64,000 bases of DNA from Candidatus Nomurabacteria bacterium RIFCSPLOWO2_01_FULL_39_18 (GTDB taxonomy: Bacteria > Patescibacteriota > Minisyncoccia > Phycocordibacterales > UBA9973): the NCBI GenBank assembly GCA_001787005.1, contig MFUV01000004.1:105770-169769 (forward strand). Direction: 5' to 3'. The notes under the pieces are model-generated. The model saw only the letters and a list, made by a program, of their open reading frames with translations. It did no database searches and was not told the origin of the DNA. The translations under genes were made by a program, and so were the position numbers. Below, piece after piece: positions 6,044 to 31,252 of this stretch. How positions within the stretch are numbered: the stretch's first letter is position 1; each line of letters begins with the position of its first letter.

Positions 6044-6065
6044 CATCTACGCCATGGCGTAGATG
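6044..6065. repeat. palindrome A copy 1 (CATCTACGCCATGGCGTAGATG)
   Basis: Perfect self-complementary 20-22-mer; identical copies at 9979-9998 and 10393-10412. Confidence 0.9.
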
Positions 6066-6091
6066 TAGTTAGTATGACAAATAATTATTCT

Positions 6092-6599: not shown

Positions 6600-9500
6600 C
6601 TATTTCAACCCTATTGTTACAGAATAAACATTTCCATCATCAAGTTTGGTAGAAATGGTATACCAATATCCGGCTGGTAATTTTTTCGTACTCCAGTTAT
6701 AGATATACTGCTGACTTTCAGGATCCCATTTGTATGTGTTGCCAGTTGTCGCAGTGTCATTATAAACAGATTCAGTGGCGGAAACATTCATTTTCGCACC
6801 CATTTGCGCACCGAGCCATATAGGCGCCGAATCTGCTTGCATAATTGTGCCATCATATTTTCTAAGTTGAAATTTAACAGGGACTGTACTGCCAGCTTTG
6901 AATATGCTTTTCTCTTGATCAATTTGATGTGCTGTATCGTTTATTGGTTGGAGAAAACCAGAGAAAACATATGGCATAGTAACGGTTCTACCTTCAGGGG
7001 CAATAATATCTGTCTCTGGGACCCCATCTCCATTTTGATCAAGTTGTAATAATAAAGCTCCCGCAGAATTCAGTGTAACTTCTGCGATTGTCTCCGGGGT
7101 CACTGGAATATCTTTAAAGATTGTTGTCGTCGTTGTTCCATTGGTTAGAACCTTTTCTGATTCATATGTGAATATACCGGTATCTATACCTTTTATTTCT
7201 ATACTCCCCATTTCGTCTTCGGGGAGGTTTAAGTACTTACCCTCACCGAATTCCATATATGATGAATTCGTAATATTTTCTTCTACATAACAAAAGTCAA
7301 AATCTGGCGGGCAAATTTTACCAGTGTGATTAGGTACTGTAGCATAATCATAAGCATCGAGAGTAACCGGTGAGTGAATTGAAATACGAAAACGATTTTC
7401 TGTGTCTATTGGTTCGTTGTCTTTTACCACATTGTCTAATGCAACATCTCCAGCTTCAATTATTGATTTAATAAAATTATTCAGTGAATCGACTTCTAAA
7501 ATATCTTTATGTTCTCTGTTGAGTCTCAATATAGTATTATAATTTTTAAAATCTACCCAATATTTTTCCGCATTTCCAAGAAAATTCATATATTGCGCAC
7601 TAGGCACAACTACAGTTCCATCCCCATCCGAGGTAAAACGAGGTCTTTCGTCTAATGCATACGGAGGACATGTTACAGCTCCGGGTGGGCAAGACACTGA
7701 TTTTGGGTAGTACTCCATACTTGCGACAGTTTCGAGTCCCCAGCCAGCCACTTCAATCACTCGCATGTCTTCAGGCGGAGTCCATGCGTCTATATTGTCG
7801 TGCAAACTTTCTGCTTGAGAAAATAAATCTTGTGAGAGATTGATAGGCAAATTTGTTTCACCAATCAATGGATTGGTTCGACCTTCATTTCCAAAAAGAA
7901 AATCTTTGTACTCGTCATAGGAATCAATTACGCCACCAAAAGCTTGAACCATTTGTGTTGTAATTCCCGAAGGAATTGCATTATCCACGAATGTCGCAGG
8001 TGAAGCATCGACATGATTTATATATTCTTTACTTGGTAAAAGTCCATAAGCCCCGAGCATATTTCGTCCAAGTTCACGAGCGTGAATTTCGTCCATTAGC
8101 CAGCCACTCAAAATTCTCTGGTCATATCCATGGAGTATTGCTGGTACTGCCTTTGCTGTGCCAATTTCTGGCACGGCAACTAAAATTAATACATCTATAT
8201 TATCAATTAGATTATTTATTCCCGCAACCTTGTCGTCTTGTAATTTTTTCAAAAGCGTTTTAGCTAAAAGTCCACCGTTGCTGTGAGCAACAATGGTAAC
8301 TTTGCCGTTTTTTGATTCCGAGTCGACCAATGATTGTAGAGTATCGATTAACGAGACTGTTTCATTTTGATATTTTGTTCCATTGCTCACAATGTCTTCA
8401 ATGTCTTGTCGCCAGTCATAGGCATATTCTTTCCATTTTTTTATTTTTTGATCAGTAACCAATTGATCCATAGTTTCAGAAAAACTTTTATAGATATTTT
8501 GTCCCAAAGCCCCTGCTGGAAATGGCGTGTTTGTCTCTTTTATGATATCTCTTGTATAAATATCTAGATTCATGCTTGTTCCATCAGGATTCAAATACAA
8601 ATCTTCCACATCGCTGTTTGTATTTGGTTCCCATAACTGGTCTTCATCTCCATTATCTTGCTCGTACAATCTAGAACCCATTATTCCCGGCAAAAAGAGA
8701 ACATTGGAGAAACAGGTGGTGCAAGTCGGAACTTTCCAGCCATCTGGTATTTTCCAAGGGAAATTGTCGGTTACATTGCCAAAGCTAATCGCAGTATCAC
8801 AAATAAAATCATTATTTATATCATTACATCCCTCCTCTGGAGTATCGTGGTTGCGATAATAGTTACCACCTATTGGCATTGGTTGATAAATGAGATTTGC
8901 AGAATTACTAAAGGAAGAAATATTCGGAATGGACATGAAATTATTATTGTAAACTTTATTATTGTTTACATTTGAACTCATTGCGACACCTATATTAGTT
9001 ACAGAAATTGTGTTGTTGCGCACCGTTGTTCTTTGTGTATTCTGAGTTAAAAGTATTCCTGTGCTAATAATGTTTACACCAGGAATATATCCAGCTGTAT
9101 TGGTTACCACATTGCCATCAATGAGATTATCAAAATCATTAAAGGAAAGAAAAAATCCTAAACCGAAGCCACGTGTTTCGTTGTTTAAGAATCGGCTATT
9201 TGTTGTTTGAAACACACCAATCCCACTATCAAAACCTTCAATAATTAAATTTTTTACTGTAATGTTTTTTCTAAAAGCAATATTAATTCCACTTCCAACC
9301 CCAAATCCATTATTCCATTTCACTATTTTTCCATTACCGTCGAGCGTAATATTGTCATTCACAATTTGTATTACTTCGAACACATCCTGTGTCATGGTGC
9401 AAGTAAGGGTGACTTGGTTCCATATGCCAAATGTAGAGCAATCTCCGCCCGTAGTATCATTACGAATGGTTTTTGTACTAGGTTGAGTTTTAATGAAAAT

Positions 9501-9902
9501 TAAATGAGGTTCGTAGCCATTTAAAGTAAAAGTTGTATTTGGGGATTCATTTGCAGAACGTTGCACCACATTTTCCAATGAATCAATATAAAAATAAAGG
9601 TCTTGGTTTGGAAGATTTTCCAATAAAATAGTTATTTCTTCTTTGCCTGCTATTGGAATAAATACCACAGATGATCCTAGCGATATTTCTTTTATAATTT
9701 CAGTTTCGGGGCTAGAAGAAATAGTGATATCTAAAAAGTCTTGTATAAATGGAAGATTGGCTGTTTCCGTTGTCGAGGCAGACTCATTTAGGAGAATAGT
9801 ATCTTCAGCATTTACTGTATGCCCACCCCAAAAAGACACCAAAATGAGGACCACCACCCCAAATTTCAATGCATTTTTCAGTACAGTCATAAATATCTCC
9901 AT
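6600..9902 (-). CDS. large secreted multidomain protein: signal peptide + right-handed beta-helix repeats + LCAT-like lipase domain + C-terminal domains
   Basis: Signal peptide MTVLKNALKFGVVVLILVSFWGGHTVNA; NITLDGNGKIV / NITVKNLIIEG type beta-helix repeats; FLPGIMGSRLY and VTIVAHSNGGLL (GxSxG-type) motifs as in the LCAT family. ORF-track start 9980 overlaps a palindrome and was rejected in favour of MEIFM/MTVLK. Confidence 0.65.
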   Translation of the reverse strand: MEIFMTVLKNALKFGVVVLILVSFWGGHTVNAEDTILLNESASTTETANLPFIQDFLDITISSSPETEIIKEISLGSSVVFIPIAGKEEITILLENLPNQDLYFYIDSLENVVQRSANESPNTTFTLNGYEPHLIFIKTQPSTKTIRNDTTGGDCSTFGIWNQVTLTCTMTQDVFEVIQIVNDNITLDGNGKIVKWNNGFGVGSGINIAFRKNITVKNLIIEGFDSGIGVFQTTNSRFLNNETRGFGLGFFLSFNDFDNLIDGNVVTNTAGYIPGVNIISTGILLTQNTQRTTVRNNTISVTNIGVAMSSNVNNNKVYNNNFMSIPNISSFSNSANLIYQPMPIGGNYYRNHDTPEEGCNDINNDFICDTAISFGNVTDNFPWKIPDGWKVPTCTTCFSNVLFLPGIMGSRLYEQDNGDEDQLWEPNTNSDVEDLYLNPDGTSMNLDIYTRDIIKETNTPFPAGALGQNIYKSFSETMDQLVTDQKIKKWKEYAYDWRQDIEDIVSNGTKYQNETVSLIDTLQSLVDSESKNGKVTIVAHSNGGLLAKTLLKKLQDDKVAGINNLIDNIDVLILVAVPEIGTAKAVPAILHGYDQRILSGWLMDEIHARELGRNMLGAYGLLPSKEYINHVDASPATFVDNAIPSGITTQMVQAFGGVIDSYDEYKDFLFGNEGRTNPLIGETNLPINLSQDLFSQAESLHDNIDAWTPPEDMRVIEVAGWGLETVASMEYYPKSVSCPPGAVTCPPYALDERPRFTSDGDGTVVVPSAQYMNFLGNAEKYWVDFKNYNTILRLNREHKDILEVDSLNNFIKSIIEAGDVALDNVVKDNEPIDTENRFRISIHSPVTLDAYDYATVPNHTGKICPPDFDFCYVEENITNSSYMEFGEGKYLNLPEDEMGSIEIKGIDTGIFTYESEKVLTNGTTTTTIFKDIPVTPETIAEVTLNSAGALLLQLDQNGDGVPETDIIAPEGRTVTMPYVFSGFLQPINDTAHQIDQEKSIFKAGSTVPVKFQLRKYDGTIMQADSAPIWLGAQMGAKMNVSATESVYNDTATTGNTYKWDPESQQYIYNWSTKKLPAGYWYTISTKLDDGNVYSVTIGLK

Positions 9903-9978
9903 ATTAGCAGTATTTCCTAAAACGGCAACTGGGGGCCAGTCTGTAGTAGAGTTAGGGTTAATAAAATCTATAATTACC

Positions 9979-9998
9979 ATCTACGCCATGGCGTAGAT
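9979..9998. repeat. palindrome A copy 2 (ATCTACGCCATGGCGTAGAT)
   Basis: Perfect palindrome exactly between the stop of the 9998-10366 gene and the promoter region of the lipase gene. Confidence 0.9.
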
Positions 9999-10366
9999 TA
10001 GTTTGTATATGATTTAGCTAACTTAAATGTTTTAAATTCTTTCTGCAGGCCAATTCTTTTCAGATAAGCAAGAAAATCCACCGGCAGTGGCGAAGGCCCA
10101 ACCCAGACACTTTTCTGAATCATGACAAAATCAAAATTCTTAAGCTGTCGACGAAACCAATCTCGCTCTTTTTTCCTCGTATACGGAACATCGTACATTA
10201 AAAGTAGGTTCTTTGGCGCATCTTTTTTAAAATCAGAAACAAAAGAACGAAGATACAGCCGTTTGTTTTTTTTAGTATTTTTAAATTTTTTCGAATCACT
10301 GAAACTTGGCAAACCTAGAATATTCACCGGCACACCTTTGTAATAAAATTTCTTTCTTCTCGTCAT
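9998..10366 (-). CDS. small basic protein with Cas2/PaaX_C-like domain (paralog of 29178-29717 C-terminal half)
   Basis: LLLMYDVPYTRKKERDWFRRQLKNFDFVMIQKSVWVGP aligns with WRLVMYDLPIRFKKARDAFRFKLKDLGFFQFQKSAWIYP of the 179-aa paralog; the beta-YDV...R.Q.SV pattern resembles Cas2/VapD. Confidence 0.45.
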   Translation of the reverse strand: MTRRKKFYYKGVPVNILGLPSFSDSKKFKNTKKNKRLYLRSFVSDFKKDAPKNLLLMYDVPYTRKKERDWFRRQLKNFDFVMIQKSVWVGPSPLPVDFLAYLKRIGLQKEFKTFKLAKSYTN

Positions 10367-10392: not shown

Positions 10393-10412
10393 ATCTACGC
10401 CATGGCGTAGAT
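10393..10412. repeat. palindrome A copy 3 in the divergent region between the Cas2-like gene and recG
   Basis: Identical 20-mer ATCTACGCCATGGCGTAGAT. Confidence 0.9.
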
Positions 10413-10446
10413 GTGGATATAGTGGAAATAATGATATAATCTTTGA

Positions 10447-12666
10447 GTGGAACTTAGCGATAGACTTGAAATAAAATTCCGCTTAGATGTAAACCAAAAA
10501 AGGGCTTTAAATAGGCTCAAACTTTTCTCTATTGCCGACCTTTTGTACCACTTTCCTGTCAGATATTCTCATATTAGTGAAATAAAACCCATTAGCCAGT
10601 TAGTGGCGGGAGAATTTGCGACGGTCTATGGAAGATTTTGGAGTCCGGACATAAAAAGAGGATACAAAAGCAAAGTTTTGCGAGCAGAAGGAGAAGTGAT
10701 AGACGAAACTGGAAAAATAAAAGTTGTCTGGTTTAATCAAGCTTACATCGCGAAAATGATACATTCTGGACAATTCGTAGAACTAACCGGAAAAGTGATG
10801 GAAAGTAAAAGGGGCAAATATCTAGCAAACCCTGAATTCAAAAAGATTGATTTACTGCCGATTGATACACATGATTCTCTATTTAATTTTGAAAAGAAAA
10901 AACAGAGCGAAGTCTTTGGTTTTCCTGTTTATGCAGAGACCCGTGGCATAACTTCTAAATGGTTCTACCATGCAATAGAGAAAATATTGCGAGAAAAAAC
11001 GTTGGATAGAATAGGAGACTACATTCCAGAGGACATTCTTAAAAAATACAACCTCCCCAGCCTGAGGACCGCGCTCATTTGGATTCACAAGCCGAAAAAT
11101 TCGCGAGACGCTGAAAGCGCCAAGAAAAGATTCGCTTTCGAAGAAGTTTTTTGCATTCAGCTGGAGCGCCAGCATGACAAGTTTGAATACAAAAAAAATA
11201 AATCTTTTCAGATTATTCCAGATGAGAAAAACGTTAAGAAATTTTTAGAACGTTTTCCTTTCGAACCAACAAATTCCCAAAAGAAATCTATCGAGGTAGT
11301 CTTGGACGATATGGCGAAGAGTTTCCCCATGTCCCGCCTCCTAGAGGGTGATGTCGGATCTGGAAAGACAGCCGTTGCGGCCACAGCAAGCTATGTGGCA
11401 GTACAACAACGTCCCAATGGACAGACTTTTGGCAACTTACAAGTCGCTTACATGGCACCCACGGAGATCCTGGCGGCACAACACTTCGAATCTTTCATAG
11501 AATATTTTAAATACCTACCGATTAACATCGGGCTCATCACCGGATCAGGTTGCAGAAAATTCCCTTCTAAAGTTAACCCCCTCGGATGGACGAATATATC
11601 CCGCGCGCAGCTTTTGAAATGGGTAGCAAATGGAGAAATTCCCATATTGATAGGCACGCATGCTTTGATCCAAAAAACGGTTAAATTTAAAAATCTGGCG
11701 CTATGCGTGGTGGATGAACAGCACAGATTCGGTACAGCGCAGAGAAGAAAGTTGGTCAGGAAGGATGCAAAAGGAAATATGAGCGCTCCACACTTGCTCT
11801 CGATGACAGCTACCCCTATCCCCCGCACCTTGGCGCTGACCATCTATGGCGACCTAGACCTCTCTCTCCTCGATGAAATGCCTGCTGGCAGAAAGAAAAT
11901 AATAACAGAGATAATCACGCTGAAGGAGCGCGAAGAAACTTATGAAAAAGTCAGACAAGAATTAAAAGCTGGCAGACAGCTCTATGTGATCTGCCCGAGA
12001 ATTTTCGAACCGGATGAAGAGTACCCCTACCCGACCTCCCCCTATATAGGGGGAGGTGCCAAAGGCAGAGGGGGTATAGAAATGAAAGCCGTTACCACTG
12101 AAGCAAAACGACTCAAAAAAGAAGTTTTCAGAGAATACGAAATAGGTGTACTGCACAGCAAGATGAGCAAGGAAAAAAAAGAAAAAGTGATGCAGGAATT
12201 TACGGAAGGCAAAATAAATATTCTCTGCGCCACATCAGTGGTGGAAGTAGGAGTAAATGTGCCGAATGCCACCCTTATAATAATAGAAGGGGCGGAACGA
12301 TTCGGCTTAGCCCAGCTTCACCAGCTTCGCGGACGAGTGCTGAGGAGCACGCATCAAGCGTATTGTTACATCTTCGCTGACGCCAAAAGCGACAAAACTA
12401 TCGCCAGGTTAAAAGCTCTTAAAACCGCCCAAAACGGCTTCGAGCTCGCAGAGCTAGACCTCTCGCTCCGCGGTGCCGGAGAGCTCGGAGGAACGAAACA
12501 ATGGGGCATCACCGACCTCGGCATGGAAGCAATTAAAAATATAAAAATGGTTGAAGCCGCCCGCACCGAAGCTGTCCGCTTGATAGGAGAAGACCCAGAA
12601 CTCACTAAATATCCCCTACTGAAACAGAAAGTCCATCAAAAAGCTGGGGAATTTCATTTTGAATAA
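10447..12666 (+). CDS. recG: ATP-dependent DNA helicase RecG (GTG start)
   Basis: Wedge/OB N-terminus, DVGSGKT Walker A, DEQHRFG, helicase C motifs; TATAAT 9 nt upstream of the GTG. Confidence 0.9.
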   Translation: MELSDRLEIKFRLDVNQKRALNRLKLFSIADLLYHFPVRYSHISEIKPISQLVAGEFATVYGRFWSPDIKRGYKSKVLRAEGEVIDETGKIKVVWFNQAYIAKMIHSGQFVELTGKVMESKRGKYLANPEFKKIDLLPIDTHDSLFNFEKKKQSEVFGFPVYAETRGITSKWFYHAIEKILREKTLDRIGDYIPEDILKKYNLPSLRTALIWIHKPKNSRDAESAKKRFAFEEVFCIQLERQHDKFEYKKNKSFQIIPDEKNVKKFLERFPFEPTNSQKKSIEVVLDDMAKSFPMSRLLEGDVGSGKTAVAATASYVAVQQRPNGQTFGNLQVAYMAPTEILAAQHFESFIEYFKYLPINIGLITGSGCRKFPSKVNPLGWTNISRAQLLKWVANGEIPILIGTHALIQKTVKFKNLALCVVDEQHRFGTAQRRKLVRKDAKGNMSAPHLLSMTATPIPRTLALTIYGDLDLSLLDEMPAGRKKIITEIITLKEREETYEKVRQELKAGRQLYVICPRIFEPDEEYPYPTSPYIGGGAKGRGGIEMKAVTTEAKRLKKEVFREYEIGVLHSKMSKEKKEKVMQEFTEGKINILCATSVVEVGVNVPNATLIIIEGAERFGLAQLHQLRGRVLRSTHQAYCYIFADAKSDKTIARLKALKTAQNGFELAELDLSLRGAGELGGTKQWGITDLGMEAIKNIKMVEAARTEAVRLIGEDPELTKYPLLKQKVHQKAGEFHFE
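12022..12077. repeat. nested palindromic element inserted in-frame in recG
   Basis: TACCCCTACCCGACCTCCCCCTATATAGGGGGAGG...AGGGGGTA; encodes EYPYPTSPYIGGGAKGRGGIE; near-identical copy at 39869-39920. Confidence 0.85.
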
Positions 12667-24257: not shown

Positions 24258-27023
24258 TTATTCCATCGTCTGATACCTCGCCATAATCTCCGCCTCCACT
24301 TCTTCTCGGTCGCGGCCGTATTTCACATAAGAAAGTTCTTTCAGAGAATCCACGATGTCGGGATTGCCTTTTTCTGGGGCTAGAGTTATCAAATTAAAAG
24401 GTTTAGTTGGTTGACCTTTTATTAGCATGCTCATGTAGGCATTGTAGTTGTCGAGCTTGGTGATGTCGGCCGCGGTAAATTGGGGCTTGAATTTCGGCTC
24501 GAGAAATGTCGCGTCCTCAGTGCCGACACGGAAGACGGCCATGGAACCGACATTGCCGAAGACTGCATTTTTAATATTGTCTTCGAGCTGAGTGATGTAT
24601 TGATGCGCAATATTAAGCGAGAGTCTATATTTGCGAGCTTCAGATAAAATAGAAGCGATGGAGTCAGTCGTAACATTCTGAAACTCGTCAATGTAGAGAT
24701 AGAAATCATTCATCGGCTTGCCAAACATGTCTACTCGCGAGAGCGCCGCCATCTGGATTTTGCCGACTAAGACAAGCCCGATCAGATTCGCATTGATATC
24801 CCCGAGTCTACCCTTCGAGAGGTTCACTAGAAGAATTTTCTTCTCATCCATAATCTTGCGGAAATTAAAAACAGAGTTCTGCTGAAGCACCACTGGGCGC
24901 ATAATGTCATTGGAAATAAAATTATCAAATTTTGAAGAAATATACGGCACGAAGTTCGCCAAAGATTGGTCTCCTGTTGTTTGCTCGGCGGAAATCCAGA
25001 ATTGTTTGATTATTGGATTCTTGCATCTCTCGAGCTTCATGTCGCGGAATTCTTTGTCAGCCAAAACACGGGTAATCTCGAGTAAGGTTGAGCCGGACTC
25101 GGGATTTTCCATCACTAAAAAGGCGCTATTTCTGAAATATTGTTCAAACATCGCCCCGCCTCCGACCTTCATGTCGAAGAGTTTATTGAAAATTCCCATC
25201 AGTTCGTTCACTACGAAAGTTTTCTGCTCTGGATATTTCGGATCATACTCGAGCATATTGAGCCCCATTGGGCGGGCAGTATAAGCCGGATCGAAATAGA
25301 TCACGTCATCGATACGCTCTTTCGGAATCCTGGACAAGATTGTCTGGATGTCTGTACCGTGCGGGTCTATATAACAGCAACCATCGCCAGCCTTTATATC
25401 CTGCGTAATCATATTGAGCATGATGTTGGTCTTTCCTGTACCCGTCTGACCGATGACATAGAAATGCCTCATGCGATCTTCGCGTGCCAGATGAATTATC
25501 GTATCGCGCCCCCGATAACTGTTAACTCCTAAAATCACACCCTCTTGTCCCATTTCGAGTGGCGCCGGCGCAATGCCAGCTTTGGCTTCTTTAAGCTGTG
25601 GCTGACTCCCGATACCAACCGGGAAATGAAAGACTGAAGAGAGTTCTTTCAAATTCATCGGCAAAATCTTATCATGGGAAAAAGAGCGGAAAGAAAAGTC
25701 TTGAAAAAGTTTTTTCAAATCATTTCCTTGCATTTCTTCAAAAAAGAAAGAATTGCTAGCCGCTTCAGAAAATTGGTGAAAGGAAGATTCTATCTCTTTC
25801 AAAATCGCCCCTGCGCGTTCTTTCGTCTCGGCAGAGGCTATCACTCGAATATTTGCCTTCATGATAGTGCTTTTTATTTTGTTGCCTATTTTCTCAGCTG
25901 CACCTTCGTCTACTGCCCGTCTGCCCTTCATATATTTTTCTTTTTTTTCTTCCGGCTCTTTCTTCACTCCAAAAACAAGTTCTTTGCCCGCTTTCAGCAG
26001 GGCATGATTGAATTTGTAGAAATTATCAGCCGCGTGTTTGACGGATACGCCATCCTTTACATCATCTAGGATCTTATGGAATTCATTTATGAATTTGTCT
26101 CCAGCCGGCGCGATAACAAGCTGAATCGCCGCGCCTTCTCCCACTGTTTGCAGTTTGGAAAAAACATTAAGTATTGGATTCATCGGATCGTGTTCGATAT
26201 TGTCATAGGTCTTGATCGGCATCACTGCTCGCTCGGTAAAGCTCGCATAAGCCCCGACTGACCCGCCAGAAACATTGAAAATATTATAGTCGTCGGTGAC
26301 CTCTCGAATTTTCGCATCATGATAAAATGCTAAAATTTGTTTTTCAAATAGCGTTAGATGTTTGTTGGGGATGGCGGCATAGACCACCACTTCATCGCTC
26401 TCTCCCGAAAGCGCCACTTCCAGGGTGAAATAATTTTCTTTTTCATTATTTTTACCGATGGAGATAGAATGCATGCCGGCATAAAATTGCTCCATCGCGC
26501 CGATGAATTCTTTGAACCCTTTTGATTTGTCAGCCTCATCGGTAGGTGGCGGAAGCGTTATTTCAAACAGGGTCATATTGAGCGATTTGTACAGTGGTGA
26601 GTCTTCTTTAAAATCGGACACAACTTGGCCGGTCTTTAAATATTGAATTAAGAGTCGGTGGAAATCGTCTTCAATATGCGGACTCCCCATCGCTTCCATC
26701 ACCGAGAGCGCATTTTTAATTCCTTTGGTAATAACAACGCCCAAAAGCTCTTCCATCACCACGTCGTGGGCTTCGGGCTTGAGCGCAAGCACGATACCCT
26801 CTTTGTCCTTCTTGTCTAGGAGAATACTTTCATATAAAGCCTGCCCTGCTGGCACATCCCTATACGCTTCTACAACTTCGCCGGCCGCATTTTCTTTAGC
26901 ATTTTCAAAATGTCCTATTTTAATTAATTCTTGCTCTCTTTTAGCAACATGCGCCCGCAAGTAGTCAAGCTCCTCTTCTGGAGTCTTAAACTTCGGCATT
27001 TCCTTAAAGAAGGATGGTTCCAT
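24258..27023 (-). CDS. FtsK/HerA-superfamily P-loop ATPase with VirD4/TraG-like (AAA_10/TraG-D_C-like) C-terminal half and long unique N-terminal region
   Basis: Walker A GQTGTGKTN, Walker B LYIDEFQ, SEARKYRLSLNIAHQ; no N-terminal TM helices. Confidence 0.5.
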   Translation of the reverse strand: MEPSFFKEMPKFKTPEEELDYLRAHVAKREQELIKIGHFENAKENAAGEVVEAYRDVPAGQALYESILLDKKDKEGIVLALKPEAHDVVMEELLGVVITKGIKNALSVMEAMGSPHIEDDFHRLLIQYLKTGQVVSDFKEDSPLYKSLNMTLFEITLPPPTDEADKSKGFKEFIGAMEQFYAGMHSISIGKNNEKENYFTLEVALSGESDEVVVYAAIPNKHLTLFEKQILAFYHDAKIREVTDDYNIFNVSGGSVGAYASFTERAVMPIKTYDNIEHDPMNPILNVFSKLQTVGEGAAIQLVIAPAGDKFINEFHKILDDVKDGVSVKHAADNFYKFNHALLKAGKELVFGVKKEPEEKKEKYMKGRRAVDEGAAEKIGNKIKSTIMKANIRVIASAETKERAGAILKEIESSFHQFSEAASNSFFFEEMQGNDLKKLFQDFSFRSFSHDKILPMNLKELSSVFHFPVGIGSQPQLKEAKAGIAPAPLEMGQEGVILGVNSYRGRDTIIHLAREDRMRHFYVIGQTGTGKTNIMLNMITQDIKAGDGCCYIDPHGTDIQTILSRIPKERIDDVIYFDPAYTARPMGLNMLEYDPKYPEQKTFVVNELMGIFNKLFDMKVGGGAMFEQYFRNSAFLVMENPESGSTLLEITRVLADKEFRDMKLERCKNPIIKQFWISAEQTTGDQSLANFVPYISSKFDNFISNDIMRPVVLQQNSVFNFRKIMDEKKILLVNLSKGRLGDINANLIGLVLVGKIQMAALSRVDMFGKPMNDFYLYIDEFQNVTTDSIASILSEARKYRLSLNIAHQYITQLEDNIKNAVFGNVGSMAVFRVGTEDATFLEPKFKPQFTAADITKLDNYNAYMSMLIKGQPTKPFNLITLAPEKGNPDIVDSLKELSYVKYGRDREEVEAEIMARYQTME

Positions 27024-27046: not shown

Positions 27047-27832
27047 TTAAACTTTGGTCAAAATTTCTGGTTCACCTTCGGTGATGAGGATCGTGTGTTC
27101 GAAGTGCGCGCTACGCTTTCCATCCGCCGTGCGAAAAGTGTAGCCATCGGCGTCGAGTGTTACATTCTTTGTGCCATTGTTAATCATTGGCTCGAGTGCG
27201 ATAACCATGCCCGGAATTAATTTTTCTCCTTTCCCCCTTTTACCAAAATTCGGAATATATGGATCTTCGTGCACATAACGCCCCACGCCATGTCCGGACA
27301 GAACCTCCACAATGCCATATTTGCCACCTCCCTTGGAGCGAATGAAGCTCTCTACCGCATAGCCTATATCTCCCACCGTGTTGCCTGTTTTGCCCCCCTG
27401 GGCTACGTCAATGCCTACTTGTAACGCCTGCTCTGTAATTTCAAGAAGTGCCTTGCTACCATCGCTTACAACACCCACGGGCACAGTCATGGCCATATCA
27501 GTAAAAAGTCCATTGTGCTTTAACCCTAAATCAATAGAGACAATATCGCCTTCTTTCAATATTCTGTCCTTCCTAGGAATCCCATGGACCACTTCATCGT
27601 TTACAGATACACAAAGTGCGGCTGGAAAAGGAATTTCTGCCCCAGCTGGTCGATAATTTAAAAAGGCTGGAGTGTCACCCATCTCTTTGATTAAATTCTG
27701 CGCATATGTGTCCAAGTCTTTCGTAGAAACTCCTGGAGCAACTTTTTCTTTCACCTTATGAAGCACAGTCGCCAGACGCCTGCCCCCTTCGCGCAGAATT
27801 TCTATTTCTTTTGGTGTCTTAATGATTATCAT
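27047..27832 (-). CDS. map: methionine aminopeptidase type I
   Basis: Pita-bread fold metal ligands (D..D..H..E..E pattern); adk-map linkage. Confidence 0.9.
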   Translation of the reverse strand: MIIIKTPKEIEILREGGRRLATVLHKVKEKVAPGVSTKDLDTYAQNLIKEMGDTPAFLNYRPAGAEIPFPAALCVSVNDEVVHGIPRKDRILKEGDIVSIDLGLKHNGLFTDMAMTVPVGVVSDGSKALLEITEQALQVGIDVAQGGKTGNTVGDIGYAVESFIRSKGGGKYGIVEVLSGHGVGRYVHEDPYIPNFGKRGKGEKLIPGMVIALEPMINNGTKNVTLDADGYTFRTADGKRSAHFEHTILITEGEPEILTKV

Positions 27833-27838
27833 AGCGTG

Positions 27839-28426
27839 CTAGAACCCAATGGCAGAAATTATGTCTTTGTGCACATCTTCAATACTTTGCTCACCATTTA
27901 TGGTATAAATTGTATACCCAGCTTTCCCTTTGAAATAATTCATAGCGGGAATAACACTGTTTATATATTCATCAAATCTTTTTTCAATACCTTCTTTTGT
28001 GTCATCATGTCTACCACGTAAAAGATTTCTTTTCATGGCTTCTTCCTTCCCCACTTCTATATAAATAATTTTTATATCATTTCTTTTATACCATTCCATC
28101 ATCACTTCAAAAGTTTGAGATTGAGGTATGGCACGAGGCCATCCGTCGGTGATCAAATGACTGTCTTTGGTAAGAAAATTTATAAGCATATTCGTGACCA
28201 TAGCATCAGGGAAAAACCCGGGTTGGAGTTCTCCTCGCGAAACGGAGTCTCTCATAAGAGTAGCTGTATAAGTATCAGATTCGATAATCTTTCGAAACTC
28301 ATTTCCTGGATAGGCATATAGACAATGTTTGCTATCCTTCTTTTTCAGAAAATCCATCAAAAGTTTAACCTGAGTGCCCTTGCCAGAACCCACTATTCCA
28401 AAAAATACAAAAGTCTGCGGTTGCAT
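27839..28426 (-). CDS. adk: adenylate kinase
   Basis: P-loop GIVGSGKGTQ; LID and NMP regions. Confidence 0.85.
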   Translation of the reverse strand: MQPQTFVFFGIVGSGKGTQVKLLMDFLKKKDSKHCLYAYPGNEFRKIIESDTYTATLMRDSVSRGELQPGFFPDAMVTNMLINFLTKDSHLITDGWPRAIPQSQTFEVMMEWYKRNDIKIIYIEVGKEEAMKRNLLRGRHDDTKEGIEKRFDEYINSVIPAMNYFKGKAGYTIYTINGEQSIEDVHKDIISAIGF

Positions 28427-28487: not shown

Positions 28488-29096
28488 ATGAAAAGACTTG
28501 GATTTAACATAGTGCTTCTTGGGATGATAGCTTCCGGCAAAGAAACACAGGCTAATATTTTAAAAAAGAAATACGCGCTAAAATTCGTGGAGTCTGGTGT
28601 GTATTGGCGAAAACTTTTGAAAGAAAAAAGTGTTGATGGAGACTGGGTAAGAAGAACAACTGGAAAAGGAAGCCCAGCCCCGGTTGCTTTGATGAAAAAA
28701 TTCCTAGTTAGAGAGATTGCAAAAAAACCGAAGAATAAAGATTTGCTTTTTTTGGGCAATCCTAGATTGAAACCTGAAGCACAACTTTTGAAAAAGATAT
28801 TGAGTAAAAAGAGACAAGATTTTTTCGCTTTATACATCTCTCTGCCCGACAAAGAAGTTTATAAACGATCTCTGAAAAGGAGAACTGGAAAAATGAAAGG
28901 AATTTATAAGGTATTTGATACAAAAAAAATTATCGGCACTAGAATCAAGTGGCACAAAGATCAAGTGGGTAAAACAGTGAAATATTTTCAAAGCCTAAAA
29001 AAATTAAAAATAATCAATGGCAATCAACCCATCCCTAAAGTTACCAAGGATGTCCTAAAAGAAATTGAGGAGTATAAAAAACGGAGAGAAAATTAA
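28488..29096 (+). CDS. adenylate/nucleoside-monophosphate kinase-like paralog with degenerate P-loop
   Basis: LLGMIASGKETQANIL (Gly-to-Glu in GKGT); basic C-terminus. Confidence 0.45.
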   Translation: MKRLGFNIVLLGMIASGKETQANILKKKYALKFVESGVYWRKLLKEKSVDGDWVRRTTGKGSPAPVALMKKFLVREIAKKPKNKDLLFLGNPRLKPEAQLLKKILSKKRQDFFALYISLPDKEVYKRSLKRRTGKMKGIYKVFDTKKIIGTRIKWHKDQVGKTVKYFQSLKKLKIINGNQPIPKVTKDVLKEIEEYKKRREN

Positions 29097-29124
29097 CAGG
29101 AACGTATGTTTAAAAACTTCTGTT

Positions 29125-29162
29125 CTGTTGTGAAATCACGCATATGCGTGATTTCACAACAG
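29125..29162. repeat. 38-bp perfect palindrome CTGTTGTGAAATCACGCATATGCGTGATTTCACAACAG (putative operator)
   Basis: Self-complementary; TGTGA..TCACA half-sites; 15 nt downstream of the wHTH gene stop. Confidence 0.85.
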
Positions 29163-29177
29163 AGAGTTTAAATAAAA

Positions 29178-29717
29178 TTAAAGTCCAAAGTGAACTTTTA
29201 ATTTTGTTTCATCTAAAACTTTACTTACTTCTAAAATCTCTATATGCTTACGAACTCCATAAAAATCCGCTACGAACAGAATCTCCCCTTCGCATGGATA
29301 TGGATAGATCCAAGCACTCTTTTGAAATTGGAAAAATCCTAAATCTTTTAATTTGAATCTGAAAGCATCACGAGCTTTCTTGAATCTTATAGGAAGATCA
29401 TACATAACTAGACGCCACTTACCATCCCATTTTTTAGAGTTCTTGATTACAACTTCATCAATTAAGATTTCTCGTAACTTATTTTCCCCCTTTGGAGTGA
29501 TTATATATTTTTCTTTACCCTCTACTCTCACATGTCTAACAAATCTATATCTCCTCAAGCCGTGAAAAATCTGTTGTGTTTTTCGATTATTGTTGATGAT
29601 CGGCGATAATTTTTCTCCCAAAGCAACAGCGCAAAGTAAGCTTTGCGCTAGATTCATACCCTCCCCACCAGAGCTAAAAAATTTCTTTAATTTTGCTAAA
29701 TGTTCTAGTTTAACCAT
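29178..29717 (-). CDS. putative transcriptional regulator: N-terminal winged-helix + C-terminal Cas2/PaaX_C-like domain
   Basis: wHTH-like GLRRYRFVRHVRVEGKEKYIITPKGENKL; C-terminal WRLVMYDLPIRFKKARDAFRFKLKDLGFFQFQKSAWIYP. Confidence 0.5.
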   Translation of the reverse strand: MVKLEHLAKLKKFFSSGGEGMNLAQSLLCAVALGEKLSPIINNNRKTQQIFHGLRRYRFVRHVRVEGKEKYIITPKGENKLREILIDEVVIKNSKKWDGKWRLVMYDLPIRFKKARDAFRFKLKDLGFFQFQKSAWIYPYPCEGEILFVADFYGVRKHIEILEVSKVLDETKLKVHFGL

Positions 29718-29718
29718 A

Positions 29719-29754
29719 TGTTGTGAATTTTAGCATATGCGAAATTTCACCACA
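29719..29754. repeat. imperfect palindrome TGTTGTGAATTTTAGCATATGCGAAATTTCACCACA abutting the regulator start codon
   Basis: Shares TGTTGTGAA / GCATATGC / TTTCAC..ACA with the 29125-29162 palindrome. Confidence 0.7.
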
Positions 29755-29980
29755 AGGGAGGGGTGGGTAAACAAGGGAATTAAAGAACAATGGAAGGAAA
29801 TTGAAGAATATCGAAGCAGGTAGAAATTTTATTTTACTTTTACAACATCCTCAATATTATCTAGTGAAAGATTATATTGACTAGAAATTCTTGCATCACC
29901 CATGTCAAAAATCATAAAAAATTTCCTATCGTATCTAAGTCCAACATGGCTTATCTTCTCGCATAAAATAAAATTAATTT

Positions 29981-31252
29981 TTAATACTCCCGCATGGAGA
30001 CTTGCGCGTCGACTTTTTTCAGGAGATCGAGGACGACTGAGACAACGATAAGAAGAGATGTACCACCTATGGCCAGAGAGGCGATGCCCGTGACATGTTG
30101 CATGATGATGGGCAGAACTGCGATAAAACCTAGGAACACTGCGCCTAGGAGGGTGATACGGCTTAAGACTTTCGAAATATAGTCCGAGGTCGATGCGCCT
30201 GGACGAATTCCGGGAATAAACGCGCCATTTTTTTGCAGATTCGTAGAAAGCGCCTCAGGATCGAAGGTGACGGCAGTATAAAAGTAAGTGAAAAGAAAAA
30301 CCAAAATAAAATACAGTATGGCATAAAGTATGGAAGTCTGGGAAAATGACATGAGAACGCTTGAAATTTTCGCAATTATTGTGTTGCCAAAACGAGACAA
30401 GAAAGTGCCAATCATCTGCGGGAAAAGAAGAATAGAGAGAGCAAAAATTATTGGAATAACTCCGGCTTGATTCACTCGAAGAGGCAGATAGGTGGATCCT
30501 CCTCCGTACATTTTCATCCCCCTGACACGCTTAGCATAGGTTACGGGGATCGGTCTCTCCGCCTCTGTCACAAGCACAATCCCTGCCACGATAAGTACTC
30601 CCGCTACAATAAACATCAAGAAGAGAGGGATTTGAGAAGGATCGAAAGTGAAAATGAGCTGGCTGACTTGTGAAGGCAGACTAGAGACAATACCAGCGAA
30701 GATTATGAGCGAAACTCCATTGCCAATGCCGAATTCAGATATAAGTTCACCAATCCACATCAAGAGCACTGCTCCCCCGATGACAATAAATAAATTTGTA
30801 ACTTTATCGAAAGTTGTTAAATTTACCAAAATGCTCTGACTTTCTAAAATAGCCAAAAGGCTGAACCCCTGGATAGCCGCTAGCGGAACAGTCAGCAATC
30901 TCCCGTATTGAGTAAATTTTTTCCTGCCAGCCTCGCCTTCTTCGTGATAAATTTTTTTCAGAGCTGGAACCATGATGGTCAGAAGCTGCATGATGATAGA
31001 GCCAGTGATGTACGGACCGACACCAAGCATTATTATAGAGAGATTGGAAAGCCCACCTCCTGAGAATATATTTAAGATGCCGAAAAATTGATTATTCGCC
31101 AGGAATCGATTAAGCGCTAATGTATCAATCCCAGGAATAGGAATAGCGGAGAGCAATCTAAATACGATAAAAGAAAAGAGCACGAACAAAACCTTCTTTC
31201 GAAGAGAAGTGTCTGTCCAGATCAGTTTAATTTTATTAAAAAAATTCTGCAT
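29981..31252 (-). CDS. secY: preprotein translocase SecY
   Basis: 423 aa, 10 TM, conserved SecY signature regions; downstream of rplO. Confidence 0.95.
   Translation of the reverse strand: MQNFFNKIKLIWTDTSLRKKVLFVLFSFIVFRLLSAIPIPGIDTLALNRFLANNQFFGILNIFSGGGLSNLSIIMLGVGPYITGSIIMQLLTIMVPALKKIYHEEGEAGRKKFTQYGRLLTVPLAAIQGFSLLAILESQSILVNLTTFDKVTNLFIVIGGAVLLMWIGELISEFGIGNGVSLIIFAGIVSSLPSQVSQLIFTFDPSQIPLFLMFIVAGVLIVAGIVLVTEAERPIPVTYAKRVRGMKMYGGGSTYLPLRVNQAGVIPIIFALSILLFPQMIGTFLSRFGNTIIAKISSVLMSFSQTSILYAILYFILVFLFTYFYTAVTFDPEALSTNLQKNGAFIPGIRPGASTSDYISKVLSRITLLGAVFLGFIAVLPIIMQHVTGIASLAIGGTSLLIVVSVVLDLLKKVDAQVSMREY

Follow-up and report, generated by a model that had tools for sequence, protein, structure and literature searches.

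The stretch of DNA analysed here (the window) comprises 64,000 nucleotides (nt) of Candidatus Nomurabacteria bacterium RIFCSPLOWO2_01_FULL_39_18 (contig MFUV01000004.1, positions 105,770 to 169,769 of the forward strand) and carries, within a cluster of ribosomal-protein genes, a small gene encoding a PaaX-like protein, which we call paaXl. The gene lies between two related palindromes, one directly before its start codon (P_up) and one shortly after its stop codon (P_dn), and we refer to the gene and its two palindromes together as the cassette. On the minus strand the genes follow the order L15, secY, paaXl, adk, map and then a gene for a DUF8128/TraG-like ATPase of 921 amino acids, and a paralogue of adk faces paaXl from the other strand. 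An earlier note, made from the letters of the sequence, had placed the gene between secY and the adk paralogue, breaking up the secY-adk arrangement, and had read it as an autoregulated, possibly mobile or addiction-like module; the gene order was checked in the window and is as described. The material considered in the following covers about 10% of one genome (the 64-kb window) plus flanks of +/-4 kb around homologous loci.

Both palindromes are present. The 38-base-pair (bp) string reported before as a perfect palindrome past the stop codon turned out to be the inner part of a 40-bp repeat, which is 14 nt away from the stop codon of paaXl on one side and 27 nt from that of the convergent adk-like gene on the other, and the related imperfect palindrome abuts the start codon as had been noticed. 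The start itself (M1) is kept across 28 aligned homologues. A search with degenerate patterns (up to 3 mismatches) recovered just P_up and P_dn in the window, where shuffled sequences give an expectation of 0.00-0.02, and with a weight matrix built from the homologous sites the two score 47.7 and 51.0, against a shuffled maximum of 0.5. Neither approach returned a further site in the 64 kb, everything else scoring below 8. The 291 kb of flanks from unique loci added two extra sites only, in the loci L003 and L017 (homologous and related loci are numbered with the prefix L), and both are solo, without an adjacent paaXl. The palindrome of L003 (2174-2213) lies directly after the secY stop, with a TrmB-like gene and two small open reading frames (ORFs) before P_up, and the one of L017 (about 1981-2020) lies 2 kb upstream and is followed by the same 30 nt that follow P_dn of that locus. 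As far as can be seen in the window and the flanks covered, the only visible target of the paaXl protein would be its own gene.

The two-palindrome layout is a property of the family. We gathered 75 homologous loci from species-representative genomes and metagenomes, about 45 of them unique, with protein identities of 32-76%. Results showed that nearly every locus with enough flank (about 45 unique loci) has one palindrome just before the start and another 6-80 nt after the stop, the few apparent exceptions being contig ends or partly degraded sites, so that homologous loci retain the palindromes along with the gene. The sites share a core, whose halves TGTnGTkAAwTT-nn-GCAT and ATGC-nn-AAwTTmACnACA meet at the dyad axis, and the CATATG at the centre is invariant. 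The outer arms vary by lineage (GTGAA/TTCAC, GTTAA/TTAAC, TATAA/TTATA, CTGCTAA/TTAGCAG or GTCTCAAA/TTTGAGAC). When the two sites of one locus are compared, their arms match in 13.8 of 16 columns, as opposed to 10.1 for shuffled partners, and 0 of 10,000 shuffles reached the observed value. Dyad covariation is strong at positions +/-12 to +/-17, with a complementarity of 0.83-1.00 observed vs 0.36-0.70 expected, and two paralogues found in one genome bin (L005 and L012; MFUG01) have different arms. Considering the shared layout, the match of arms within each locus, the covariation across the dyad and the paralogue-specific arms, the palindromes are cognate to the linked gene, as the earlier note had supposed, and they would be physically bound by its product.

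Other identities of the sites were considered and rejected. The 11-6-11 layout resembles a recombinase core, but a dif/Xer site does not agree with the presence of two sites at every paralogue and with arms that track the linked gene and differ between the paralogues L005 and L012 of one genome. An integron-like array bounded by such sites does not agree with the cargo genes between secY and P_up, which are unbounded by sites except in L003 and L017. We also found no avoidance of CATATG of the kind that would hint at restriction-modification (18 observed vs 13 expected).

Table 1. Coordinates of the features at the paaXl locus and arrangement of the secY junction in relatives lacking the gene there.
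Feature	Position or loci	Strand	Description
paaXl (mini-PaaX gene)	29178..29717	minus	ORF of 179 amino acids; Pfam PaaX_M, E 2.4e-20; AlphaFold; Foldseek
P_up	29719-29754		Imperfect palindrome, 81% identical to P_dn; 1 nt before the ATG at 29717
P_dn	29124-29163		Perfect inverted repeat, 20+20 nt without spacer, TCTGTTGTGAAATCACGCAT followed by ATGCGTGATTTCACAACAGA; 40 bp
secY	29981..31252	minus	Upstream neighbour of paaXl
adk-like kinase paralogue	28488..29096	plus	Convergent with paaXl; Pfam ADK, E 1.4e-15; neighbour, not part of the cassette
adk	27839..28426	minus	Beyond paaXl in minus-strand order
map	27047..27832	minus	After adk
Segment absent from close relatives	29097..29980		884 extra bases, exactly between the adk-like and secY stops
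Decayed relic of an adk-like 3' end	29751..29836	plus	HKGGVGK ... KEQWKEIEEYRSR, stop; intact gene WHKDQVGK ... KEIEEYKKRREN, stop
secY and adk-like gene convergent, stops overlapping by 4 nt	L098/99, L093, L100, L096/97		Empty site
secY and cmk-like kinase gene convergent, stops overlapping by 4 nt	L102, L104		Empty site
secY followed directly by adk	L094/95, L105		Empty site
Other arrangement	L101, L103		Empty site

The upstream palindrome contains the promoter motifs of the gene. On the minus strand, a -35 element (TTGTGG, 29755-29750) is separated by a spacer of 17 nt from an extended -10 element (TGC-TAAAAT, 29735-29727), and the ATG follows 9 nt after the -10. The same form, TTG-N17-TGnTAnAAT with the ATG 9 nt after the -10 in most loci, is found across the family: the extended -10 TGnTAnnnT occurs in 47 of 50 unique upstream sites vs 14 of 46 downstream ones, and a TTG exactly 17 nt upstream of the -10 in 41/50 vs 10/46. 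A Shine-Dalgarno motif precedes 3 of the 36 window ORFs, and several ORFs have a TATAAT-like -10 box 7-12 nt before their start; transcripts without a leader thus seem to be the rule in this genome. As the operator spans the region from -35 to +1, an occupied site should exclude RNA polymerase, and the autoregulation proposed before is thus well supported as a prediction. A precedent exists in Escherichia coli: PaaX recognises TGATTC-N27-GAATCA there and, by keeping RNA polymerase out, represses Px, its own promoter (PMC9493321).

We then considered the protein. Pfam PaaX_M (PF20803) matches residues 95-167 at 72.8 bits, well above its cut-off of 24, while Cas2 models stay below theirs (PF09827, E 0.005 and 17.5 bits vs 23.8; TIGR01573, 18.4 bits vs 24.5), and the Cas2_II model of PADLOC matches at E 1.7e-6 over about 40 residues only. 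The PaaX equivalog TIGR02277 gives 19.9 bits vs a cut-off of 264.55. There was no Pfam match at E<=1 to PF07848, the PaaX-type N-terminal winged helix, and no model covers the N-terminal half; PaaX_C (PF08223) was not matched either, the protein ending at residue 179, right after the Cas2-like domain. The AlphaFold model, computed with 28 homologues (mean predicted local distance difference test score 77), consists of a helix-turn-helix with a beta wing (about residues 20-90; H23-33, H38-43, H45-56, E60-73) followed by a beta-alpha-beta-beta-alpha-beta domain. Its best Foldseek matches in the PDB are PaaX (8a39, E 5.8e-4), Rv0674 and 3l09, then Cas2 and MarR-type winged helices, with probabilities of 0.8-0.97 to several Cas2 structures. 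The winged helix joined to a Cas2-like fold that the earlier note had recognised is therefore supported by the PaaX_M profile and the predicted structure, and nothing placed the protein in an unrelated characterised family. Because it stops where the effector domain of PaaX would begin, it is a two-domain mini-PaaX, a predicted winged helix plus the Cas2-like PaaX_M, without the effector-binding C-terminal domain. In PaaX, the C-terminus binds the inducer and the Cas2-like domain is the dimerisation module (PMC9493321).

The fusion is not the rarity it had been taken for. It is the architecture of Pfam PaaX_M, and a profile search gave about 2,090 clusters at 50% identity with E<=1e-10, nearly all of the best 150 listed being 170-230 amino acids long. 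All the close homologues come from metagenome bins of Parcubacteria, Paceibacterota or Nomurabacteria. Among the 28 homologues the C-terminal Cas2-like domain is more conserved than the DNA-binding half, with 40-odd invariant residues, many of them basic or aromatic. One of these, D107 at the end of strand 1, aligns with D10 of the Cas2 protein SSO1404 (2i8e), which we take to be its catalytic residue, and Q132/S134 align with Q33/S35 in the same weak profile alignment (E 0.17). Residues 25, 26 and 50 covary with G/T at +/-12 of the palindromes, a signal that phylogeny confounds and that was not used. Sequence searches of the PDB for PaaX or Cas2 relatives gave nothing useful, no transposase was returned by the fold search, and Pfam, NCBIfam and PADLOC gave PaaX_M and Cas2 only. 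In agreement with the earlier note, no CRISPR array or CRISPR-like repeat family is present in the 64 kb, and no cas1 turned up among the annotated flanking genes, the other ORFs of the window not having been scanned for cas genes.

A variant of the gene was seen in another assembly of the same strain (L106, 563-1075), which is 100% identical over 2.6 kb; there paaXl has a 27-nt in-frame deletion and one substitution. The deletion corresponds to 29361-29387 of the window, lies between AGATTCAA repeats and removes RFKKARDAF, including the invariant R111, K113 and R116. It is either a probably inactive natural allele, in which case the gene is dispensable, or an assembly artefact.

We asked how the secY-adk junction looks in sister genomes. 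The secY of the window itself is 100% identical to P0270, in accordance with its origin in Candidatus Nomurabacteria RIFCSPLOWO2_01_FULL_39. In eleven relatives whose secY is 85-97% identical to that of the window, none has paaXl between secY and adk. By blastn against four of these empty sites (L093, L096, L098, L100), homology ends at 29982 and resumes at 29081-29096, and in six of the eleven the secY and kinase stop codons overlap; the contig of L093 ends inside the kinase gene, which is only partly visible there. The adk-like kinase is present without paaXl in L096, L098 and L100, and the adk paralogue does not therefore belong to the insert. Relatives (L096-L100, L102, L104) have beside secY one of two unrelated convergent nucleotide-kinase genes, adk-like or of the Cytidylate_kin2 type, and others have neither kinase at secY, so that this junction varies in a second respect. 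Rather than belonging to the housekeeping genes of the secY-adk-map cluster, the cassette is an accessory insert placed where two convergent genes meet. Paralogous cassettes were found at other convergent housekeeping junctions, between PBP/CapA and smc-rnc, between hpf and fmt-def, and between uvrB and an unknown gene. In most secY-linked loci the kinase stop and P_dn are 12-41 nt apart, and the stretch from secY to P_up ranges from 29 to 2,175 nt and holds unrelated cargo (TrmB-like, asparaginase-like and unknown genes). The GC content of the cassette, 31-36%, is similar to that of adk and the adk-like gene and below that of secY, and composition is not diagnostic.

The kinase gene next to the cassette is a mosaic. 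Compared to L098/L099, the window's adk-like protein is 94-95% identical over residues 1-100, 80% over residues 101-150 and 71% from residue 151 to the end, and its last third is closer (85%) to other lineages. The 3' third of the kinase gene thus looks imported, and no mosaic break was found in secY.

Some further observations concern the same junction. The ATPase gene after map (24258-27023, DUF8128/TraG-TrwB-like) is found in the same place in most related loci whose flank extends beyond map, with or without the cassette. In L104, a gene for an IS200-type Y1 transposase (7473-8153, PF01797) follows map directly, a further sign of a cluster that tolerates insertions. Six loci (L001, L002, L004, L011, L015, L016) come from bins titled 'uncultured Candidatus Saccharibacteria'. 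In the first three, secY is 82-85% identical to that of the window and the gene order is the same; the flanks of the other three show no secY. These taxon labels look unreliable.

Several loci retain traces of how the cassette may have arrived. In L005, the cassette lies between two perfectly identical direct copies of a 40-nt sequence: the left copy is the tail that a cmk-like gene originally had (ending in KKWLEN and a stop), still overlapping the secY stop, and the right copy lies in the intact cmk-like gene, which now ends in KKWLTK. In L050, the last 11-12 codons of secY are repeated across the cassette (34 nt, 91%), about 35 nt from the adk-like stop, and in L018, 58-61 nt of the 3' end of uvrB (89%) bracket a 79-amino-acid ORF together with the cassette. 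L067, a relative of L018, is without the uvrB remnant and shows a duplicated terminator hairpin instead. The window has a candidate trace of the same kind, a decayed adk-like 3' end; a tblastn search of the kinase C-terminus against the upstream flank gave E 0.008 plus a colinear match at E 0.87, which is weak alone and parallels the clear duplications of L005, L018 and L050. The bracketing repeats measure 28, 30, 34, 40 and 58-61 nt and lie outside the palindromes, with 13-95 nt of unrelated sequence between; the palindromes are therefore not the crossover points.

These repeats are compatible with one crossover of a small circle, or with illegitimate recombination that homology facilitates once DNA has been taken up; recombination between them would in turn remove the cassette exactly. 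None of the brackets encloses a recombinase gene, one identical protein (P0047) keeps its context at 10/10 places among those listed (24 contigs read), and all secY-linked copies of the cassette share one orientation; a lateral spread by flanking homology would accordingly be better supported than self-transposition. Taking the empty-site relatives together with the duplicated gene 3' ends, the cassette is accessory and presumably laterally exchanged. The earlier suggestion of mobility thus stands in the sense of an accessory gene with eleven empty sites, and it finds no support in the sense of active transposition.

The explanation that we favour, and that we hold to be probable, is that of a self-contained, autorepressed mini-PaaX cassette with one operator embedded in its promoter and a second one after the gene, exchanged among Nomurabacteria as an accessory insert. 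A dimer of the protein would recognise the 36-40-bp dyad, its winged helices reading the widely spaced, lineage-variable outer arms, and beneath the conserved Cas2-like dimer the flexible, invariant centre would either be read or just be bent. An occupied P_up would block RNA polymerase from the -35, the 17-nt spacer, the extended -10 and the leaderless start, and the protein would in this way hold its own level constant, as E. coli PaaX does at Px. P_dn would be bound by the same protein, most likely reinforcing repression by looping of the gene of about 590 bp, and may also serve as a bound roadblock or a 3' hairpin that separates the transcript of the cassette from its convergent neighbour. 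The cassette itself would be gained and lost by recombination through the 3' ends of the flanking genes.

Some points weigh against this explanation. The view covers a limited part of the genome and short flanks, so that distant sites of a larger regulon are possible, and a repressor that targets only itself has no evident benefit for its host. The conserved Cas2-like domain, with its aspartate aligned to D10 of SSO1404, leaves room for a second activity. Helical phasing is not seen in the distances between the sites (573-689 bp; Rayleigh p about 0.1), which is neutral on looping. The at least 7 changes of gain or loss that a rough secY tree requires for the presence of paaXl speak for its accessory status but are a biased count, considering that the loci with the gene were chosen for the gene and those without it for the similarity of their secY. 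Finally, everything said on function, that is binding, repression and looping or roadblock, is read from sequence, as is the route of transfer.

The same layout could be read as a minimal self-mobilising element resembling an insertion sequence, in which the winged helix would bind the terminal palindromes, the Cas2-like domain would cut and join DNA, and the promoter in one end would provide autoregulation. We consider this unlikely. In its favour, one gene lies between two copies of its own predicted binding site with the promoter inside one end, it is present in some sister genomes and absent from others, solo extra sites occur in L003 and L017, and the protein retains the hallmarks of Cas2 (YD where strand 1 ends, Q-x-S within strand 3), in addition to the PADLOC match. 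Moreover, direct repeats of 28-61 nt from the 3' end of a flanking gene, with no recombinase inside, are found in L005, L018, L050 and L067. They would be left behind if the protein bound the bracketing palindromes and, itself or via host enzymes, promoted the excision of a circle and its integration into the 3' ends of convergent genes, a sequence of events that we find doubtful. If true, a stand-alone Cas2-like protein would for the first time be credited with a recombination activity, which would be relevant to how the Cas1-Cas2 integrase arose. On the other side, the protein has no known transposase or recombinase motif, no near-identical multi-copy families were seen, and the identical P0047 keeps to one context. 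The repeats vary in length and lie outside the palindromes, the uniform orientation of secY-linked copies is what transfer by flanking homology would be expected to give, and the mosaic structure of the kinase indicates homologous recombination of the ordinary kind.

A one-gene toxin, defence or addiction module, in which a Cas2/VapD-like domain would act as nuclease effector and the winged helix with its operators would keep the dose very low, seems improbable to us as well. In favour of such a module, the gene is accessory, has a patchy distribution and occupies a variable position where unrelated cargo genes also accumulate; its Cas2-like domain is far more conserved than the DNA-binding half and has an aspartate aligned with the presumed catalytic residue of Cas2; tight autorepression by two operators is typical of dose-sensitive genes; and one population variant carries the in-frame deletion that removes invariant basic residues. 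Nevertheless, it is a single gene with no conserved partner, antitoxin or sensor, in any context, and PADLOC gives only a weak similarity to Cas2. In the viral contigs of IMG/VR the homologues are distant and partial, none exceeding 46% identity, and a matching site does not occur; a phage link was rejected on these grounds. In PaaX itself the same domain serves dimerisation (PMC9493321).

The role of P_dn allows a narrower alternative, that it is a bidirectional intrinsic terminator only, which owes its likeness to an operator to duplication and has no protein-binding role. P_dn does lie between convergent stop codons in most contexts, its RNA folds with a mean free energy of -15.5 kcal/mol (down to -29), and a TTTT follows it in 15/43 loci on the sense strand vs 2/43 on the antisense strand. 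In the window the stem is perfect, with TTTTT 8 nt after it. Against this, a simple terminator scan does not call the site of the window, 65% of loci are without a T-run, and the downstream arms track the upstream site of their own locus across lineages. P_dn is also kept where the next gene is co-directional (L010, L014, L016, L019). The pattern of symmetry is informative in this respect. As a class the downstream sites are slightly more symmetric on average than the upstream ones (14.8 vs 14.1 of 18), and their dyad symmetry is kept at +/-1-4 and +/-12-17; complementarity is only modestly above chance at +/-5-6 and is at chance at +/-9-10 (0.59 vs 0.57 and 0.63 vs 0.62), both of them positions of the stem. 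We therefore judge a terminator-only role very improbable. Being without promoter motifs and not maintained as a hairpin, P_dn has the appearance of a second operator, to which the same protein would bind. Its likeliest roles would be looping and a roadblock or insulation, and the T-runs suggest that it may double as terminator in a minority of loci.

It is extremely improbable that paaXl is a housekeeping gene, inherited vertically with the ribosomal-protein cluster, that regulates adk and its paralogue there, a reading already largely refuted by the empty-site relatives. In its favour, about 19-25 loci share the synteny secY-paaXl-kinase-adk-map, P_dn is always close to the kinase stop, and secY and paaXl distances correlate weakly (rho 0.39, reached by 30 of 2,000 permutations). 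Against it, the gene is missing in each of the eleven nearest relatives examined, where the kinase genes are kept, no site lies at the adk or adk-like promoters, paralogous cassettes sit beside smc/rnc, fmt/def, uvrB and trmD, and the correlation falls to 0.12 in a 14-locus subset where secY vs map gives 0.47.

The autorepressed cassette can be compared with several known systems. Its best structural match is PaaX of E. coli W (8a39; PF07848 + PF20803 + PF08223), with which it shares the order of winged helix (predicted here) and PaaX_M, far-apart inverted hexamers (about 22 nt between the arms here vs 27 nt in PaaX) and the repression of its own promoter by occlusion of RNA polymerase, known for PaaX at Px (PMC9493321) and predicted for the cassette. 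It differs from PaaX in size (179 vs about 305-316 amino acids) and in having no phenylacetyl-CoA-binding C-terminal domain, and as it stays below the TIGR02277 cut-off without a match to PF07848, it is not a PaaX orthologue. No paa genes lie nearby, the neighbours being ribosomal, secY, kinase, smc, fmt and uvrB genes, and PaaX does not have the invariant CATATG centre, the second operator after the stop and the accessory behaviour. With Cas2 and VapD the protein shares the ferredoxin-like fold and, in the weak alignment with SSO1404, the YD and Q-x-S motifs; unlike Cas2, it scores below the curated cut-offs, its domain is fused to a DNA-binding domain and there is no CRISPR array in the window.

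As for the arrangement of sites, lambda cI (OL/OR), LacI (O1/O2) and GalR (OE/OI) likewise have a repressor gene or promoter bracketed by cognate operators that can be bridged, one of them overlapping the promoter. Here, in contrast, there is a single long dyad on each side, the second site controls no visible promoter, the family is unrelated and looping is a prediction. Insertion sequences and RAYT/REP systems also place a single gene between copies of a sequence bound (in our case by prediction) by its product, with a promoter in one of them and a patchy distribution. The layout of terminal repeats around one gene is found in P_up and P_dn as a formal resemblance only, since the cassette has no recognisable transposase chemistry, occurs as single context-bound copies, makes no target duplication of fixed length and leaves its palindromes undispersed. 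Elements that integrate into gene 3' ends similarly have the intact target gene at one end and, at the other, a remnant copy of its final 11-20 codons, as seen in L005, L018, L050 and the relic of the window; unlike them, the cassette has no integrase in the bracket, its targets vary (cmk-like, uvrB, secY, adk-like) and the bracket is only 0.7-1.2 kb long in L005 and L018. In the literature, no paper was returned that has PaaX together with Cas2 or with the Candidate Phyla Radiation, and looser searches on PaaX or Cas2-like proteins with Patescibacteria or winged helices found nothing describing this cassette.

Elsewhere in the window we noticed other repeats. An unrelated 20-bp perfect palindrome, ATCTACGCCATGGCGTAGAT, is present in three copies (6045-6071, 9979-10005 and 10393-10419); one copy abuts the start of a gene for a 1126-amino-acid LCAT/NosD-like protein (6600..9980, minus strand), another lies just upstream of recG (10447..12666), and this palindrome may be the operator of some other regulator. 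Three more families of repeated hairpin-like or palindromic intergenic sequences lie in or near the ribosomal-protein cluster (31257-31308/35740-35791, 32574-32632/41795-41853 and 12035-12056/39884-39905), one of which is a perfect 22-mer, CCTCCCCCTATATAGGGGGAGG.

In bacteria of the Candidate Phyla Radiation very few regulators can be recognised, and the binding site is known for almost none of them. The present results provide a predicted operator with lineage-specific arms and a predicted leaderless promoter for a family that is large (about 2,000 clusters at 50% identity) and uncharacterised, and one gene with two operators makes a clear, testable design. They also provide a clean natural case of an accessory gene inside the most conserved gene cluster of the genome, with filled and empty alleles in sister species and with duplicated gene ends that record how the cassette entered. 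Moreover, if the Cas2-like domain does more than dimerise, the cassette would link a family of transcription factors to the biochemistry of Cas2.

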